DNA of 64,000 nt from Candidatus Heimdallarchaeota archaeon (GTDB taxonomy: Archaea; Asgardarchaeota; Heimdallarchaeia; JABLTI01). The notes under the pieces were generated by a model that saw only the letters and a program-made list of their open reading frames with translations, was not told the DNA's origin and did not search any database. Each line of letters begins with the position of its first letter. The first letter of the stretch is position 1. Made by a program: the position numbers and the translations under genes. Shown in pieces: positions 27,338 through 48,941 of the stretch. Location: assembly GCA_018238155.1 (NCBI GenBank), contig JABCTZ010000037.1:32001-96000 (forward strand). The letters are read 5' to 3'.

Positions 27338-29143
27338 ATGGCGGAAAACAATGACCAAGAAAAATCATCAAGCATGCTAAATGGTGAATCAGATTTAGAT
27401 GGTAAGATGATTATTGATTCGAGGGGAGAAGAAGTTGGCATTTGTAAAGCAGTTAATATTGGAGAGGATGGGCAAATTAGTTTGAGCTTTGAAGTTGTAA
27501 TCAATGAAAAACAAGTCATCCCAACTCAAACAATTCCCTATAATGTTATTAGCAAAATTACTGATGTAATTGAATTAAGAGTTCCAATTAATATTAAAGT
27601 AGCACAGTCATCAGATGAAATCAAAACTCAAGATGAAATAAAAGAAACAAAAGTATTGGAAGAGCAAAAAGAATTAATTGAAGTAAAAAAACCGCAAGAA
27701 ATGGTTATTGCTGAACCTGAGACATCAAAATCAGCAGATGATTCTACTAAATCTAATGAAGAGAACATAATTGAGCCAAGCAAACATGCGCCTATGAAGA
27801 AAACAGAACCTGTAATTGATAAAACGATTAAAACTTTCAACAAAACTCAACTAATTGCAGCTGAAAAATTAACTGGTAAAATTGAAATACCACAAGCAGA
27901 TGCTACGCAACAATTATCAAAAGCACTCAAAGAAGAAGATTTTCCTAAAACAAAAACGAAACTTACTTCTACAAATGAAGAAGTAAAAAAATTAACAGTC
28001 GGATTAGAAGAATCCGTTAGAAAAATAGAACGCTTATTTAAATTAGTAACTGAGGGTGACGAGGAAACAAAAGTTGAAGCAATTAAAGCTTTAACATATC
28101 TAACTACAATCTCTCCTGAACTAGGCTTAAGTCTAATACCTAAATTGATGGAATTAAATGATGAACCTAATCAAGTAGTCAGATTAAATATAGCTCAACA
28201 ACTGGAAGTTATTGGTGAAGCAAATCCCGAACTTTTTAATGGTTATTATCTAGAATTATTAGAAAATGCATACGAAGAACCAATCGAAGAAATAAGAGAA
28301 CAACTAGTAAAAAGTCTTCATGAAATTGCAAGGAAGGATGCAAATATTGCATGTACTGATCTAGAAGTATTTTTAGAAGATGTTATCATTGGAAAACGGG
28401 TACCTGAAGTACCAGCAAAAGTACTGCACGATGTTACTCTTAAAGTAGTTTCGGGAAATTTCAAGCTAACAAAAATAGCTATTCGAGCACGATTGAAATT
28501 TATTGCTCAGGGAGGAAAGCTAGGAGAACGTTGTACAGAAGAACTCGAAGACTATAACGCAACTCTAATTGGACTTACCTTGATTGAAACTCACTCTCCT
28601 AAAGAAGCAGAAAAATTGATGAAGAGTACAAATTTTAAGAAACTTGGACCAATTTTTATTGAAGTAATTAATCAGATGATTGCTGCTTACAGTGAAGGAT
28701 CAATTAAGCAGCTTGAAGAAGCGGTAGATAAGAAAATAATCATTTCAATAGAAGTAATTGAACGATTCTTTGAAAGAAAAATAATAAAAACTCTTGAAGG
28801 AATGAAAAACGTTCCAATGGAAGTATTTTTTGGGAGTTCAATTGTTACACCTGAAGAAGCAGAAAAAATCATCTATCGGCTTGTTGTTCAGAAGCGGATA
28901 AATGCGTCAATCAACATAAATGGCAATCGTACTTTTATCACCTCTCTAGATGTAGAAAAATCAAATGGAAAAAATATAGAAAAGCCAAAAGTCACTAAAC
29001 AACCCGCGAAGAAAACTACTACAAAAAAGAAAACAACTACAAAGCAGGCACCAAAGAAAACAGCTTCAAAAGCTACTGCTCCAAAGAAGAAAACAAGTAC
29101 AACAAAAAAATCAACAGCAAAAAAACAAACTAAAGATAAATAA
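27338..29143 (+). CDS. PRC-barrel + HEAT-like repeats + PCI-like winged helix + Lys/Thr-rich tail
   Basis: LDGKMIIDSRGEEVGIC...IPYNVISKITDVIEL (PRC); DEETKVEAIKAL, DEPNQVVRLNIA, EEPIEEIREQLV (HEAT); EEAEKIIYRLVVQKRINASI (wH); KKTTTKKKTTT tail. Confidence 0.65.
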   Translation: MAENNDQEKSSSMLNGESDLDGKMIIDSRGEEVGICKAVNIGEDGQISLSFEVVINEKQVIPTQTIPYNVISKITDVIELRVPINIKVAQSSDEIKTQDEIKETKVLEEQKELIEVKKPQEMVIAEPETSKSADDSTKSNEENIIEPSKHAPMKKTEPVIDKTIKTFNKTQLIAAEKLTGKIEIPQADATQQLSKALKEEDFPKTKTKLTSTNEEVKKLTVGLEESVRKIERLFKLVTEGDEETKVEAIKALTYLTTISPELGLSLIPKLMELNDEPNQVVRLNIAQQLEVIGEANPELFNGYYLELLENAYEEPIEEIREQLVKSLHEIARKDANIACTDLEVFLEDVIIGKRVPEVPAKVLHDVTLKVVSGNFKLTKIAIRARLKFIAQGGKLGERCTEELEDYNATLIGLTLIETHSPKEAEKLMKSTNFKKLGPIFIEVINQMIAAYSEGSIKQLEEAVDKKIIISIEVIERFFERKIIKTLEGMKNVPMEVFFGSSIVTPEEAEKIIYRLVVQKRINASININGNRTFITSLDVEKSNGKNIEKPKVTKQPAKKTTTKKKTTTKQAPKKTASKATAPKKKTSTTKKSTAKKQTKDK

Positions 29144-31261: not shown

Positions 31262-31368
31262 GTGCGAGTGGTCTAGCTCGGCATGACGCTAGCCTCACAG
31301 TTTACCTATCTTTCAGGAAAACGAGGAAACGCTGGATATCACCGGTTCAAATCCGGTCTCGCACACCA
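31262..31368 (+). tRNA. tRNA-Val(CAC) with a 30-nt intron; CCA encoded
   Basis: Acceptor GTGCGAG/CTCGCAC, anticodon stem CTAGC/GCTGG, CAC at 31296-31298, T-arm ACCGG-TTCAAAT-CCGGT, ACCA end. Intron is 31299-31328 or 31300-31329. Confidence 0.93.
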
Positions 31369-31387: not shown

Positions 31388-31861
31388 CTATTTTCTTCCA
31401 CCATGAAGTATCGGCAAAATTACTATCTTGTCATCGATATTAACTAGATCAGAAAGTGAATATATTTCTCCATTTACGAGGACAGTATGTTTTCTAATCA
31501 CATCATCTTTAAATCCATTATTCTTCATGTAAATCTTGACAGTCATTGGGTATTGGAGTTGTTCAAACGGTTCAAAAGTAAAATCAGGTAAACTCTCTTG
31601 TTTTAATTTAATCAATTTAAAAAATTGAATCAGAATTTTCACAGCTTCATCAAAGAGTGTGGAGTTTTTCAAATTGCCTTTAGTAGTTGCTTCGATTAGT
31701 TTCTTCTTGAGATTTTCGCACAAGAATAACTGTTCATCCGCTGAAAGTTTCTGCCAGTTATCTTTTAGCTTTTCGTGAAAACTTTTCAGTTTGAAATTTT
31801 TATTAAATTCTGTTTCTTCGAGAAACTTATTTGACCATTTAAATTTATCATATCCGGTCAT
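31388..31861 (-). CDS. Ubiquitin-like (MoaD/ThiS fold) domain with N-terminal helical extension, ending GG-RK
   Basis: MTVKIYM...TVLVNGE...VNIDDKIVILPILHGGRK*. Confidence 0.7.
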   Translation of the reverse strand: MTGYDKFKWSNKFLEETEFNKNFKLKSFHEKLKDNWQKLSADEQLFLCENLKKKLIEATTKGNLKNSTLFDEAVKILIQFFKLIKLKQESLPDFTFEPFEQLQYPMTVKIYMKNNGFKDDVIRKHTVLVNGEIYSLSDLVNIDDKIVILPILHGGRK

Positions 31862-31979: not shown

Positions 31980-32516
31980 CTAATTTCTTCTACTAAATTT
32001 TACTACTCTTTTTGTATTTTCTATTAGCTTAAATTTATTTGTTTTTTCGATTAGCTCAGTGATATCATCTGCTGATTTACCTGATTTTTGAATGGCAATT
32101 ATTCCATCTTTTGTGAGAATCCGATCCATTTCCAACATAACGTCATCAATTATTTTCACTAATGAATGTATCACACCAAAAAAGAAAGCAAGATCAATAC
32201 TATCATCAAGTAAACTCGTTTCTGTGACATTCTCATGCAGTAATTTGACATTGTTGATTTTTTTCTTGGAAATTTTCTTTTCAACTCTTTTGATTGCAAA
32301 AGGGTTTATATCACTAGCATAGACAATCCCTTCTTCACCGACAATTTTTGCTGCAGGAATAGTATAGAAACCAGGTCCACATCCGACCTCAAGTATTTTC
32401 TGCCCTTTTTCTACACCAGCAGGTAAAAGCAAATTTTCTGCTTTCATAAACAATCCATAAATCATTTCATGCATAAATGAAACGCCGATAAAATGAATTC
32501 TCTCACGGAATGACAA
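31980..32516 (-). CDS. Class I SAM-dependent methyltransferase
   Basis: ILEVGCGPGFYT, VYASDIN, SIDLAFF, RILTKDG. Confidence 0.9.
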   Translation of the reverse strand: MSFRERIHFIGVSFMHEMIYGLFMKAENLLLPAGVEKGQKILEVGCGPGFYTIPAAKIVGEEGIVYASDINPFAIKRVEKKISKKKINNVKLLHENVTETSLLDDSIDLAFFFGVIHSLVKIIDDVMLEMDRILTKDGIIAIQKSGKSADDITELIEKTNKFKLIENTKRVVKFSRRN

Positions 32517-32691
32517 AACAAATCCTCGAATAATTAATCAATCTAATTACTTAAATAATTTATCTAACATTGTTGATAAATTTGGATCAAGAAAATTTTA
32601 CATCAAAATGAAAATAGAAGGTTTAAATACAAAATGAACGCCTTTTAATTGAGCCACATCTTTGGACTCAAGTCCAAGGTGATGAAAAACT

Positions 32692-33540
32692 ATGTCTGGA
32701 TTTATCATTCTTAGAGATATTCCAAAAGAAATCGCTCAAATTGATTTGCTTTCTTTTGATATTAAAGGTGGTTTTCGAGGTTTTTCTGTTGTTGAACCTG
32801 GCTTTCACTTTGTCAGCATAAAAGTTGACGATGAAATGCATGAAGGTTTCTGGTGTTTTGTAAATGACGAAGAAGCAATAATTAAACAATTTAACTATAC
32901 TACCAAAAGCTTTCAGAATTGTAATCCTAAAGAAGAACGTAACTACAAGCAGCTTGCACAAAGTGGTGCAATGAATCACGTCCTTATTCCAATTATGCCT
33001 TTGAATTATACAGCAGTTGCTAACTGGAACATTCTAACAAACTATTTGAAAAAGGATAAAATTCCGTTTAACTTAAATCACGAAGAACCAATTATTCTAC
33101 CAAATAATCTTTCTATAGAAGAAACGAGTGATTGGTTTGAAAAAAAATTCAAATCTCGTTTTGAACAAGCTTTTGAGGATTCACATAATTGCAAAAATGA
33201 TTCTTTCTTAGCTGAATTTCAATTTTCTTTTGTTAAATATATTGTAAGACAGAAAGATAATCAGGCACTACAACGATGGTTACATTTGCTTCAAGCATGC
33301 TATAATGCAGGAGAAAGAAAAATAGATTCACAACCAACCTTGTTTTCCGAGTTAGTAACTATAATGACATTCCAATTTGATTTACTGGCAAAAGATGAAT
33401 TTTCAAGAGATAGCAAACTAATCTCGAGTATAGATCATTTCATTGAAGATATGATCGATACAGGTAATGAAAAGCTAGTAAAACAAGCACAGAGATTAGC
33501 TCAATATTTTGAAGAAAGGGAAATCAACATAGAGAATTAG
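32692..33540 (+). CDS. AAR2-family protein (homologue of the eukaryotic U5 snRNP assembly factor)
   Basis: IILRDIP...IDLLSFDIKGGFRGFSVVEPGFHFV...GFW and FLAEFQFSFV...LQRWLHLL...LFSELVTIMTFQF. These parallel eukaryotic AAR2 motifs as recalled: GIDxxSWxVGxxFRGVKMIPPGxHF, GFF, LGELQFAFV, EHWKRLL, ILYHQL. Confidence 0.8.
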   Translation: MSGFIILRDIPKEIAQIDLLSFDIKGGFRGFSVVEPGFHFVSIKVDDEMHEGFWCFVNDEEAIIKQFNYTTKSFQNCNPKEERNYKQLAQSGAMNHVLIPIMPLNYTAVANWNILTNYLKKDKIPFNLNHEEPIILPNNLSIEETSDWFEKKFKSRFEQAFEDSHNCKNDSFLAEFQFSFVKYIVRQKDNQALQRWLHLLQACYNAGERKIDSQPTLFSELVTIMTFQFDLLAKDEFSRDSKLISSIDHFIEDMIDTGNEKLVKQAQRLAQYFEEREINIEN

Positions 33541-33584: not shown

Positions 33585-35243
33585 TTATTCTTCATTTGTT
33601 TCTTTAGTTATAATATCAGGTTGCTTTGTATCACTAGTTTGAATACTGCCATCATCATAGATGGTCCATCCTGCAGATGTTTTCAGGCTTTTAACAGATT
33701 CCATAAATTGTTCTACTAATTTAGCGTATTTCTCTTGTTCAACAGTTTGATGATAAATAATTGTGATGTCTTCTTTCAAATTTGCTCTTGTACTTCTTAT
33801 ACGACCCATTGCTTGTTCACGAGCTTCAACTGATAATGTTGTCCCGAAATGAATACAACGATCCGCTTGAGGTAAATCTGTTCCTTTACGTATAAGGCGC
33901 TCGCTTGCAAATAGAACTTTAACTTCACCACTCTTAAAGCGTTTAATTTGCATATTTTGAGATTCTCCGCCCATACCACCGTGAACAAAAAGGTTTGGAA
34001 TACCTTCTTTTTCAAGCAATCGAGAAAGATGTCTAGTCATATCTACAAAGCGCAAGAAAATGATAACTGAACTATCTTCTTCTCGAACAAGTTTCTTAAC
34101 AATTTGAATTAATCGCAAATCTTTAGGTGAAACAGTTTTAGCCTTTCCTTCCTTAACAGCTATCTCAACTAATTCTTTGATAGCAATCCAATCAGAAGAG
34201 CTCAAGAGAAGGCTATTTTTTATATTGATAACAAAACCGGCAAATTTAGCAAAAGTGTGCTCAAAGAGAAATTGTCTGGCAATTACTAAATCAAGATATG
34301 CACCGGCATTGATAATTAAATTCTTGAAAAACCCTGCAGAACCTTTCGCAAAGCTTGTCCCCTGATAAGAGCGTTTCAATATATCATTAGCGAAGAGAAG
34401 CATTCTATTACCCGGTAAATTTTGTCCACTCAAACGTTTATAACCACTTCTCAATACTTTCTCAGTTTTAGAGCGAAGAACAGTAAGATATTGATCTACC
34501 TCTTTTCTCATATCATCAAAAACATAAAATCGCTTCAGCTTTATTGCGGGAGCATGTTCTTTAAAATCGTCACTTTGTGGGTAGATGAATTCAACCATAT
34601 CTTTTCCACCCAATGTCCCTTCAATAAAGGATAGCTTGCCTTTTTGAAGAATTGATGCTGTTAAACCCAAGAATTTGGAACTCTCTTTGGCTTTTAAGCG
34701 ATCAATTAATGGAGCAAAACGTTTGTCCATTCGAAATCCTCCACCCGCTACTGTTTGAGCTGTAATATCCAAAATCTCATCGATAACAATGAACTCTACT
34801 TTATCAAGGTCTTGAGGGAGAACCCTTCTTTGAGAAGGTGTCCTTGCAAAGAGCGAATTCATTAATAGTGCAGGAGTAGCGAAAATAAAACGAGATAAAG
34901 CAAAGTGCTTTTGAATGATTTTTGGTGGCAAGCCCTTACCTTCAGGTAAAAGGAAGGAACCTCCATAACCAGATAAATCTGCTTGACAAACGTCGTGTAA
35001 TTGATGCTTTAATTTTCTATCAGGAGATAAGAATAATACTTTACCTTCAGAAGAAATAACGCCTTTCTTAAGCAACTCTACAATAACCATAACAGCAACA
35101 TTTGTTTTACCCATACCTGTAGGTAATAGTAAAACAGCTGAACGTTTTTCATCTTCAAATAATGATTTAAGAATTTTCTCAGCAGCATCTGTTTGATACT
35201 CTCTAGGGGTAAAGGATAAATCATCTAAACACTCGAGTGTCAC
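33585..35243 (-). CDS. SF2 helicase (Hef/FANCM-like helicase core, no nuclease domain)
   Basis: PREYQ, LPTGMGKT, FATP, VIDEIL, GLTAS, IIF, VHGG, KGTDLP, QAMGR. Confidence 0.85.
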   Translation of the reverse strand: MTLECLDDLSFTPREYQTDAAEKILKSLFEDEKRSAVLLLPTGMGKTNVAVMVIVELLKKGVISSEGKVLFLSPDRKLKHQLHDVCQADLSGYGGSFLLPEGKGLPPKIIQKHFALSRFIFATPALLMNSLFARTPSQRRVLPQDLDKVEFIVIDEILDITAQTVAGGGFRMDKRFAPLIDRLKAKESSKFLGLTASILQKGKLSFIEGTLGGKDMVEFIYPQSDDFKEHAPAIKLKRFYVFDDMRKEVDQYLTVLRSKTEKVLRSGYKRLSGQNLPGNRMLLFANDILKRSYQGTSFAKGSAGFFKNLIINAGAYLDLVIARQFLFEHTFAKFAGFVINIKNSLLLSSSDWIAIKELVEIAVKEGKAKTVSPKDLRLIQIVKKLVREEDSSVIIFLRFVDMTRHLSRLLEKEGIPNLFVHGGMGGESQNMQIKRFKSGEVKVLFASERLIRKGTDLPQADRCIHFGTTLSVEAREQAMGRIRSTRANLKEDITIIYHQTVEQEKYAKLVEQFMESVKSLKTSAGWTIYDDGSIQTSDTKQPDIITKETNEE

Positions 35244-35410: not shown

Positions 35411-36754
35411 TTACGAAACGAATTTTATATTGTCTATCGCCACATAAGGAACATACCAGCTTGGTGTCCCTCTAAAGGGCTTTAATTCCTTACTTAGATG
35501 AGTAATTGATTTCAGATTAGTGAAGACATTAGCAACAGCAGTAATTTCTTTTAGTGTATCAGTGATTTCTCCATTTTCAATCAAACGACCACCTTTCACG
35601 GCACCAGAATAATCACCTGAAATTGGATCAGGGACAGTACTAATCCTCTGAATGAGAATTCCCTTCTTAATCTCAGGAATAATATCATCAATGGATTTCT
35701 TACCAGGGGTTATTTTAAGATTAGTAGTGGATAGATTTGGAATGTTTCTAAAACCACCGCCTGCATGACCAGTACTCTTAAGATTTTCTTTATTCGCGGA
35801 GAAAGTGTCATAAAAGACTCCAGTGAACGTTCCATTTTCTACAATATTGAGCTTTTTATGAGGAACTCCTTCACGATCGAAACTTCTACTACCAAGACTA
35901 TTCTCAATGGTTCCATCATCAACAAGAGTTACAGCATCAATAGCAATTTTATCTCCAAGTTTATCTTGAAGGTAACTGGACCCAGATTGAATATTGGTTG
36001 CTTTAGCGCTATCAATAATAAGACCAAAAATCAATTGAGCAGCATCAGGAGTGAATATCGCAGGACCTTCAAAAGAGTCAATTTTTTGAGCATTCAAATT
36101 TTGCAACACTTTTTGTGAGAATTCTGTTGCTGTTTTTTCGAGGTCTACATCTGCAATGTTGATAACAGAATCGAATTCATAATCAAAAGAACCGATATCA
36201 GCACCATCGATAGCCATGCCAAATAGGCCATAACTCAGGGCAGATTTCCTGTCTGAAACATTTATTCCATTTGAGTTGACTATTGCGTAATAATCTTCAG
36301 TTGTTTCAAAATTACCAGAATCAATGGAAATTCTTGAATCGATTTTAAGAGCAGCTTTTAGTAATTTGTTACTGTTAGAAACGATGTCATCCATAGAAAC
36401 ATTACTGATCTCTTCATCAAAGATTTTTGCAACTTGTTGAGTAGGCTGTTTTTGAGGTAAGAAATAATTGTCCTCAGGAGGAGAAACTTTGGCAATAGAA
36501 AATGCTTCTTTAAGCGCTTCACCAATCTTCTTTTTACTAAATGTATTAACACTAGCAAAACCCAAAGATTTATTCTTCAGAACACGTATTCCTACGCCTT
36601 CAATGGTTGTCGAAACAGCAGATTTCAAATTATTTGCTTCAAAATTTACTGTCTTTTGCTTTTGCTTATGAGCATAAAGCTCAACTTCATCAACACCTAA
36701 TTTCTGTGCTTTAGCAACAAAAGAATCGATTACAGATAATAATTCATCAGACAT
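35411..36754 (-). CDS. pmbA: TldE/PmbA metalloprotease partner subunit
   Basis: GVGIRV..LGFAS, DDGT...SRSFDREGVP, STGHA, SGDYSG, LIENGEI; no HExxH. True start ATG 36754 follows GGAGG; the ORF-track extension to 36820 reads through the repeat. Confidence 0.9.
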   Translation of the reverse strand: MSDELLSVIDSFVAKAQKLGVDEVELYAHKQKQKTVNFEANNLKSAVSTTIEGVGIRVLKNKSLGFASVNTFSKKKIGEALKEAFSIAKVSPPEDNYFLPQKQPTQQVAKIFDEEISNVSMDDIVSNSNKLLKAALKIDSRISIDSGNFETTEDYYAIVNSNGINVSDRKSALSYGLFGMAIDGADIGSFDYEFDSVINIADVDLEKTATEFSQKVLQNLNAQKIDSFEGPAIFTPDAAQLIFGLIIDSAKATNIQSGSSYLQDKLGDKIAIDAVTLVDDGTIENSLGSRSFDREGVPHKKLNIVENGTFTGVFYDTFSANKENLKSTGHAGGGFRNIPNLSTTNLKITPGKKSIDDIIPEIKKGILIQRISTVPDPISGDYSGAVKGGRLIENGEITDTLKEITAVANVFTNLKSITHLSKELKPFRGTPSWYVPYVAIDNIKFVS

Positions 36755-36755
36755 T

Positions 36756-36843
36756 TTATTTACCTCCAACACTACCTGAAACAAGAGCAATCGCTTGAGT
36801 GGTCCCTCCACCACCATCAACTTTAGTAGGTTGCAACTTGCCA
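36756..36843 (-). pseudogene. Displaced relic of the tldD 3' end (left copy of the direct repeat)
   Basis: Encodes GKLQPTKVDGGGGTTQAIALVSGSVGGK*, ending 1 nt before the pmbA ATG. 36774-36843 matches 46023-46092 at 62/70 nt. Confidence 0.88.
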
Positions 36844-48708: not shown

Positions 48709-48854
48709 ATCTTATCAAGAGCAATTGGGCTGAATGATTATATAAAGCTTGAGCTTTGTTTTAGGGATTAAAGTTATTTTTGAATAAAGATAGATGCTTT
48801 TTTGGTGCAAAAGAAAATTATTTATACCGTTATTAGCAAACACTATAACACTCG

Positions 48855-48914
48855 ATGGTGATGAAGTCCACCTTGACACCTGTCTGAACCGCATATGGCT
48901 GATGACTTCTACTT
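48855..48914 (+). promoter_or_regulatory. Fluoride riboswitch (crcB motif)
   Basis: GGTGATGAAGTCCACC...AACCGC-ATATG-GCTGATGACTTCTAC fits the consensus GGnGAUGrnGUyCnCC...AACCGC...GCUGAUGACyyCUAC; directly upstream of crcB. Confidence 0.93.
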
Positions 48915-48941
48915 TTAGAATTAAGGTGGAAAAAAGTAAGA

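Follow-up and report, generated by a model that had tools for sequence, protein, structure and literature searches.

The 64,000-nucleotide window analyzed here, positions 32,001 to 96,000 of contig JABCTZ010000037.1 from a Candidatus Heimdallarchaeota archaeon (assembly GCA_018238155.1), contains a gene of the AAR2 family, whose eukaryotic members are assembly factors of the U5 small nuclear ribonucleoprotein. The gene is confirmed to encode a genuine, intact two-domain AAR2-family protein, with a match far beyond chance. It is a stand-alone accessory gene, dispensable in close relatives, whose intact copies are under purifying selection. It is not a component of a ribonucleoprotein (RNP) system with the neighboring helicase, methyltransferase, or tRNA: no neighbor link is conserved, and no reverse transcriptase (RT) was found in the genome. 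On balance, and with modest confidence, we favor the view that its product is a client binder, most likely an orphan that would act in an immunity-like way against an incoming effector or would serve an endogenous client.

A Pfam-A scan of the window protein gave an N-terminal match to AAR2_1st (PF20981; 51.4 bits, E = 1.6e-13) and, after it, a match to AAR2 (PF05282; 47.9 bits, E = 1.8e-12), both above the curated cutoff of 23.6 bits that applies to each model. A phmmer search of PDB sequences matched human AAR2 (7pjh_A) at an E value of 3e-4. The AlphaFold2 model, for which a 45-sequence alignment of homologues (A1) was the input, reached a pLDDT of 94.8 and a pTM of 0.91, with strands within residues 3 to 76, a helix at residues 79 to 91, and helices across residues 142 to 275. 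When this model was compared with the PDB by Foldseek, the top match was human AAR2 (7pjh_A; E = 1.5e-10; TM score 0.81 by query, 0.73 for the other value), ranks 2 to 11 were ten yeast Aar2 chains, and no other PDB entry had an E value under 0.1. An earlier reading made from the letters alone (the sequence-only reading) had described the gene as a full-length archaeal homologue of AAR2. The homology is borne out by the profile and fold searches, and the motifs quoted in its support (IDLLSF, GGFRGFSVVEPGFHFV, GFW, W..LTNYL, FLAEFQFSFV, QRWLHLL, and FQF) are all present in the translation in the order given there. "Full-length" applies to the two folded domains, both of which are complete; it does not apply to the C-terminal tail beyond the helical domain, which is short, as the last helix of the model stops at residue 275 of 282 and only 7 residues remain.

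A search of 5.8 billion proteins returned 98 homologue clusters, mostly of about 280 aa, many of them named "AAR2 pre-mRNA splicing protein" by NCBI and drawn from metagenome-assembled genomes (MAGs) labeled Asgard, Loki-/Prometh-, Hel-, Hod-, and Heimdallarchaeota. An exhaustive comparison of the family profile with 1.84 billion representatives gave 760 matches at E ≤ 1e-3, of which 82 reached E ≤ 1e-30, and the profile built from the homologues retrieves cyanobacterial and eukaryotic AAR2 (Nicotiana, Vitrella). Homology between AAR2 and prokaryotic proteins is already published: Vosseberg et al. (2023, Mol Biol Evol 40:msad011, PMC9887622) described orthologues that stand in a one-to-one relation to AAR2 from Loki- and Gerdarchaeota, from cyanobacteria, and from one planctomycete, and their supplement adds one Helarchaeote and one Chloroflexi bacterium. 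In their words the distribution is "very sparse" and the proteins are "not characterised"; they give AAR2 as the sole spliceosomal protein with reported one-to-one prokaryotic orthologues and pose the function of these orthologues as an open question (PMC9887622). The remark in the sequence-only reading that sporadic prokaryotic homologues exist, with no function assigned, agrees with this account. The window gene is one further member, of the same family and the same lineages. That paper gives neither genomic context nor function, and what is new beyond it is described below: linkage to an effector, fusion to TerB, pairing with a regulator, and pseudogenes inside one genus. Our literature search found no paper joining AAR2 with TerB, nor AAR2 with a toxin and an immunity protein in the present sense.

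The two-domain architecture is common to the window protein and eukaryotic AAR2, including yeast Aar2p, the U5 assembly factor (PDB 7PJH, 3SBT, 4ILG, and 4I43). Identity to the eukaryotic proteins is only 12 to 16%, and the window protein, at 282 aa against 339 to 490 aa in the eukaryotic sequences sampled, does not have their long C-terminal tail. In yeast Aar2 this tail bridges the RNase H and Jab1/MPN domains of Prp8. Archaea are not known to have Prp8, and neither Prp8 nor a spliceosome is expected in the host of the window protein; a search of the genome with PRP8_domainIV (PF12134) gave no match, and the same search was also silent in every control genome.

Within the Asgard archaea AAR2 is patchy and has decayed repeatedly. 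A scan with the A1 profile detected it in 13 of 400 Asgard genomes, with one further weak match, and the Pfam model gave a similar result. In the genus of the window genome (g1) it was found in 6 of the 10 other genomes sampled. In one congener (G084; locus L019, G084:C107) AAR2 is a pseudogene, frameshifted at residue 151/152 and interrupted by TAG and TGA codons. In another (G086; L023, G086:C54), the closest relative of the window genome in the set, with flanking DNA 82 to 88% identical, only residues 152 to 279 are left after a rearrangement, and the methyltransferase block has been relocated. For the intact copies of the sister subclade dN/dS was 0.11 to 0.24, against 0.055 to 0.08 for the adjacent helicase; the intact AAR2 copies are functional and less constrained than the helicase.

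In a 69-row tree the Asgard AAR2 proteins form one clade amid bacterial sequences (95* support), and the phylogeny places the window protein inside it. The window protein and P0001 (90% identical), P0002, and P0005 make up a subclade of their own; the copies of congeners G083 and G087, at 44 to 45% identity, belong to a different subclade, although their genomic position is the same as that of the window gene. The eukaryotic proteins form a separate, long-branched clade (100*) outside all prokaryotes in the free tree; forcing them together with the Asgard clade cost 0.5 log-likelihood units and was not rejected (approximately unbiased [AU] test, P = 0.49). Two entries in these sets call for separate mention. 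L021 (G019:C36), a 6.8-kb contig, comes from the sole AAR2 carrier among 25 genomes of genus g8; its AAR2, major facilitator superfamily (MFS) transporter, and aminotransferase genes resemble the g1 loci, for which mis-binning of the contig or a recent transfer may be the reason. In the tree, P0050, labeled by NCBI as "Candidatus Deferrimicrobium sp.," a bacterium, and the copy from Asgard genome G123 (L015) are zero branch length apart, and the contig has probably been misassigned in one of the two bins.

Three genomic contexts recur in the wider family, and the first is effector linkage in bacteria. The P0075 gene starts 36 bp after a gene for a 1920-aa protein with DUF4157/eCIS_core at residues 207 to 284; that of P0088 lies 2 bp after a gene for a 759-aa protein, with gp25-baseplate and eCIS_core genes adjacent; and that of P0079 comes after the gene of a 1609-aa protein and that of an LRR protein. 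All three large upstream proteins have in common a C-terminal domain, some 400 aa long (blastp, 1e-13 to 1e-26). This domain, here called the effector domain, defines a family of at least 144 bacterial clusters, many with an N-terminal eCIS_core. A single-protein scan of genome contigs yielded only 1 AAR2 locus, and a scan with the bacterial AAR2 alignment yielded 46 metagenomic loci; the effector domain is encoded directly upstream and on the same strand in 16 of these 46 (L047, L071 to L085, and L087). Together with L029 (1202-7825), L040 (5719-8807), and L041 (404-6946; an LRR gene lies between), these pairs span at least 6 distinct bacterial lineages. The bacterial AAR2 gene sits 2 to 70 bp 3' of the sequence for the toxin-like C-terminal domain. 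At L079 the effector gene stands between a preceding DUF4280 (PAAR-like) gene and AAR2, and an eCIS_core gene is convergent.

Eight residues of the effector domain (G79, S80, S85, D86, D88, D121, N123, and Y125) are invariant among 56 members, in the pattern G-S...S-D-x-D...D-x-N-x-Y, which we read as that of a Pol-beta-type nucleotidyltransferase. No Pfam model matched the domain. Its AlphaFold model has a pLDDT of 89.1, and the ESM-Atlas entries of similar shape are mostly NTP_transf_2, DNA polymerase beta palm, poly(A) polymerase, and CCA-adding enzyme proteins, at low TM scores. Foldseek gave no PDB match to the fold at E ≤ 0.001, and in a wide VIA-align search the matches were confined to the helical C-terminal region, with Z scores up to 8.5, the generic level for helical repeats. 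As neither Pfam nor the PDB contributes a match, the nucleotidyltransferase reading draws on the invariant motif and the low-TM ESM-Atlas entries.

The toxins of extracellular contractile injection systems (eCIS) begin with DUF4157 and end with the toxin domain, a long linker lying between the two, and immunity genes are missing for many of them (Geller et al., 2021, PMC8213781); the effectors encoded upstream of bacterial AAR2 agree with this plan. Like the effector-immunity and effector-chaperone cassettes of such systems, the bacterial relatives of the window gene place AAR2 behind a toxin-like domain with PAAR-like, gp25, or eCIS_core genes alongside, a gene order that would suggest such a role. 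By analogy with eukaryotic Aar2, the window protein would bind and hold a specific client protein. In bacteria, the cognate client would be a Pol-beta-nucleotidyltransferase-like effector carried on DUF4157/eCIS_core or PAAR-linked cargo of contractile injection systems, where gene order gives AAR2 the position of an immunity protein or a dedicated chaperone. In the 69-row tree, some of the closest relatives of the Asgard clade are bacterial copies with effector linkage.

No trace of such a cassette is found around the window gene itself. The upstream gene is the divergent methyltransferase and no effector; no injection-system gene was found in the window; and the effector domain had no hidden Markov model (HMM) match among six-frame open reading frames of the genome. 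A scan with the effector profile (A3) was negative in all 400 Asgard genomes, in a search that had no positive control. The genome also gave no match to eCIS_core, for which the search was silent in every control genome as well. Because Asgard archaea have AAR2 but not the effector, their copies, the window's included, would be orphans of the effector-AAR2 pairing, and an immunity-like guard against an incoming effector or a binder of an endogenous client is their most likely role. PADLOC found no match for the window AAR2, bacterial AAR2, or the effector; among the other proteins submitted, TerB-AAR2 fusions matched PDC-S48 only, through their TerB part, and the window helicase gave weak generic SF2 matches.

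Several points weigh against this preferred reading, in addition to the lack of a positive control just mentioned. The immunity role carries bacterial gene order over to an archaeal orphan at 38 to 42% identity, and binding is inferred. Two sampled genes of the effector family have no adjoining AAR2, so the domain has no obligate partner in AAR2, although this may reflect the many eCIS toxins that lack immunity genes (PMC8213781). Dozens of residues are conserved between bacteria and archaea, above what is usual for fast-evolving immunity proteins; such conservation is also compatible with a small-molecule ligand or with an endogenous client that is itself conserved. A single Asgard clade whose intact copies are under purifying selection is likewise consistent with a housekeeping function where the gene is retained. 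A complex prediction for effector P0099 (residues 232 to 700; A3) with its cognate AAR2, P0088 (A4), scored 0.01 against a mark of 0.32 and counts neither way. The more specific scenario built on this reading is tentative and, taken as a whole, rather unlikely: that prokaryotic AAR2 proteins are immunity proteins (or dedicated chaperones) against nucleotidyltransferase-fold toxins delivered by injection systems, that Asgard copies are orphans kept against bacterial attack, with the Loki-type ones under a ligand-sensing HFX_2341_N/winged-helix regulator, and that eukaryotic AAR2 was recruited from a conflict-system protein of the archaeal host.

Residue conservation separates the prokaryotic from the eukaryotic proteins. 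Asgard, bacterial, TerB-fused, and eukaryotic members all keep P11, D18, F28, G30, G37, H39, W54, L98, W112, P125, E175, W196, and Q228. A second set, R8, K12, G26-G27, R156, H165, R195, N205, and D253, is near-invariant in prokaryotes and lost in eukaryotes. This prokaryote-only set suggests one client or ligand, common to the prokaryotic members, that would have changed in eukaryotes.

That change bears on a second account, in which Asgard AAR2 binds an endogenous MPN/JAB or RNase H-fold protein and the eukaryotic AAR2-Prp8 contact was inherited from this pairing. The titles of PDB entries describe Aar2 in complex with the RNase H-like and Jab1/MPN domains of Prp8, Vosseberg et al. trace the MPN domain of PRPF8 to an Asgard-derived protein (PMC9887622), and the window genome has genes for two JAB/MPN proteins (293 and 329 aa). 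At one Loki-type locus an RNase H gene lies about 350 bp downstream of AAR2, and the grouping of Asgard and eukaryotic AAR2 that such an inheritance would entail is the one that the AU test did not reject. Nevertheless, we consider this account improbable. A gene present in only about 3% of the sampled Asgard genomes, and decaying within one genus, is unlike the partner of a core protein; MPN and RNase H genes are unlinked to AAR2 in every other locus examined; the archaeal protein has no long C-terminal tail; and R8, K12, R156, H165, R195, and D253, conserved in all prokaryotic members and lost in eukaryotes, suggest a change of client.

Two further contexts are found elsewhere in the family. 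In 9 of the 10 long members examined, one to three TerB (PF05099) stretches lie N-terminal to a complete AAR2 module. These fusions, of 486 to 953 aa (P0245, P0264, P0300, P0253, P0273, P0290, P0284, P0303, and P0316; one from a planctomycete), contribute AAR2 parts that form one clade (97*) in the 69-row tree. The window protein belongs to the same family as these fusions but has no TerB domain, and no TerB match was found in its genome. In the second context, a gene for a 250-aa HFX_2341_N/DUF6293 winged-helix protein lies divergent to AAR2, at about 100 to 340 bp, in 12 of the 20 assessable distinct Asgard-type loci, with other flanks variable. The paired Loki-type loci are L017, L018, L025, L026, L046, L050, L052, L053, L055, L057 to L059, L061, and L062; across them the regulators are 55 to 77% identical and the AAR2 proteins 35 to 71%. 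The N-terminal domain of the regulator weakly matches the CRISPR-associated family Cas_NE0113 (E = 0.0015), which we take to be a CARF-type ligand sensor. No HFX_2341_N gene lies beside the window AAR2, and the sole copy in the genome is on another contig; effector linkage, TerB fusion, and regulator pairing are all three absent from the window locus. Small Ras-like GTPase genes occur near AAR2 in 5 loci and are directly adjacent in 3 (L016, L018, and L053), a proximity that may be due to chance, as Asgard genomes are rich in such genes. On one Promethearchaeota contig (L026:1728-4109), genes for a Sec23/24-trunk-like protein and for a GTPase of the Arf/Ras family lie 3 to 5 kb from AAR2.

The regulator pairing raises a third account: prokaryotic AAR2 might bind a small molecule, or be an enzyme that counters the product of the nucleotidyltransferase-like effector, with the Loki-type copies switched on by the HFX_2341_N/winged-helix regulator. 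The sensor-like N terminus of this regulator and its recurrence beside AAR2 would fit such a role, as would the polar residues R8, D9, K12, R29, R156, H165, E175, R195, N205, E208, and D253, invariant or nearly so from bacteria to Asgard archaea and retained in part in the TerB fusions. We nonetheless hold it to be very improbable. No catalytic fold or motif of a known kind was detected in the protein, whose sole structural relatives are the nonenzymatic Aar2 proteins; HFX_2341_N is a common archaeal family, and its pairing with AAR2 may be lineage synteny; and the window's own copy has no adjacent regulator.

The features of the window gene and its neighbors are listed in Table 1. In the divergent intergenic region, the candidate promoter element TTTAAATA (32623-32630) and a candidate ribosome-binding site, GGTGAT (32679-32684), with the ATG 7 nt further on, were read by eye in a window of about 0.33 GC; both are candidates by inference only.

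Table 1. AAR2 gene of the window, its parts, and its neighbors
Feature	Coordinates	Strand	Remarks
AAR2-family gene	32692-33540	+	ORF of 282 aa, ATG start, intact, 0 internal stops; single copy in genome
N-terminal beta-rich domain, AAR2_1st (PF20981)	32698-33057	+	residues 3-122, Pfam match
C-terminal all-helical domain, AAR2 (PF05282)	33163-33519	+	residues 158-276, Pfam match
Divergent intergenic region, 175 bp	32517-32691	+	candidate archaeal promoter and ribosome-binding site of the AAR2 gene, by eye
tRNA match, RF00005, 104 nt	31262-31365	+	Rfam, 48.2 bits; missed by ARAGORN
157-aa protein, weak ThiS-like C terminus	31388-31861	-	sub-cutoff Pfam match
Class I S-adenosylmethionine (SAM) methyltransferase	31980-32516	-	divergent upstream neighbor of AAR2
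Superfamily 2 (SF2) helicase	33585-35243	-	convergent neighbor of AAR2; nearest solved relative, P. furiosus Hef
PmbA/TldD peptidase	35411-36820	-	beyond the helicase

The sequence-only reading had proposed that AAR2 is a chaperone for an undescribed archaeal RNP of RT/maturase or RNase H fold, together with the helicase, the methyltransferase, and a structured RNA close by. In the window the genes do lie side by side, and the helicase lies beside AAR2 in congeners too. The linkage ends at the genus boundary, however: helicase and PmbA/TldD genes accompany AAR2 only within g1 (L019, L020, L022, L023, L024, L027, and L064), and several congeners have an MFS transporter inserted between AAR2 and the helicase and an aminotransferase in the place of the methyltransferase. 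The window's methyltransferase adjoins AAR2 in no other sampled genome. Neither gene is present at L090 (P0005), the nearest outgroup of the window's AAR2 subclade, in more than 20 other distinct Asgard loci, or at the AAR2 loci of any other Asgard family sampled. The archaeal locus L036 does have a methyltransferase, but of the generic class I SAM type, and blastp does not connect it to that of the window. The neighbors of AAR2 vary by lineage and include an MFS transporter, an aminotransferase, a small GTPase, and the regulator. The window helicase, which has weaker matches to MDA5 and FANCM, is Hef/FANCM/RIG-I-like and not Brr2/Ski2-like.

As for the structured RNA, its most likely identity is a tRNA with an intron, the only RNA-family match near the AAR2 gene. 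By eye it has a CAC (Val) anticodon loop and an encoded 3' CCA, and a surplus of about 30 nt suggests an archaeal intron, which is probably why ARAGORN missed it. Searches with RVT_1, which were positive in the controls (E. coli, B. thetaiotaomicron, and M. acetivorans), gave 0 matches in the window genome (4.08 Mb in 46 contigs, 91% complete) and in the 11 other genomes of its family, f1, with the proviso that MAGs often miss repeats. RVT_1 was absent from 9 of the 13 AAR2-bearing Asgard genomes; it is present in the three AAR2-bearing genomes of family f20 and in G127, a point in favor of the proposal. Dependence of AAR2 on an RT was considered from this co-occurrence and set aside: two of the f20 genomes are congeneric, and since family f1 as a whole has AAR2 without an RT, no such dependence can be claimed. 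A link to maturases by way of Prp8 does not follow from known facts, as the parts of PRPF8 that AAR2 contacts are those missing from group II intron maturases (PMC9887622). With neighbors not conserved, the point on which the sequence-only reading had itself staked the system, the RNP hypothesis fails, and we regard it as barely credible.

Other features of the region were recorded in passing. The C-terminal ~50 residues of the 157-aa protein match a ThiS/ubiquitin-like beta-grasp below the cutoff (E = 0.0033); the protein ends in ...HGGRK, is 77% identical to its counterpart in congener G086, and is possibly a ubiquitin-like modifier with an N-terminal extension. A 601-aa protein (27338-29143, + strand), with a Lys/Thr-rich C-terminal tail, has weak PRC-barrel, HEAT-repeat, and PCI-domain matches, all sub-cutoff; at locus L027 its counterpart, a syntenic 601-aa gene, precedes an epimerase gene. 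A crcB-motif fluoride riboswitch (RF01734) lies at 48848-48918 on the + strand (48.4 bits, against a gathering score of 34).

The window thus adds one more member to the AAR2 family and no system; its locus is ordinary, and the gene is broken or lost in close relatives. The comparative context yields a testable hypothesis for the AAR2 family as a whole. It leaves the maturase/RNP idea unsupported, narrows the question of prokaryotic AAR2 function to a form that can be tested at the bench, and identifies as the recurrent bacterial partner of the family an uncharacterized nucleotidyltransferase-like effector of contractile injection systems. Should binding underlie the effector linkage, a factor of spliceosome assembly would have its origin in a system of microbial conflict.

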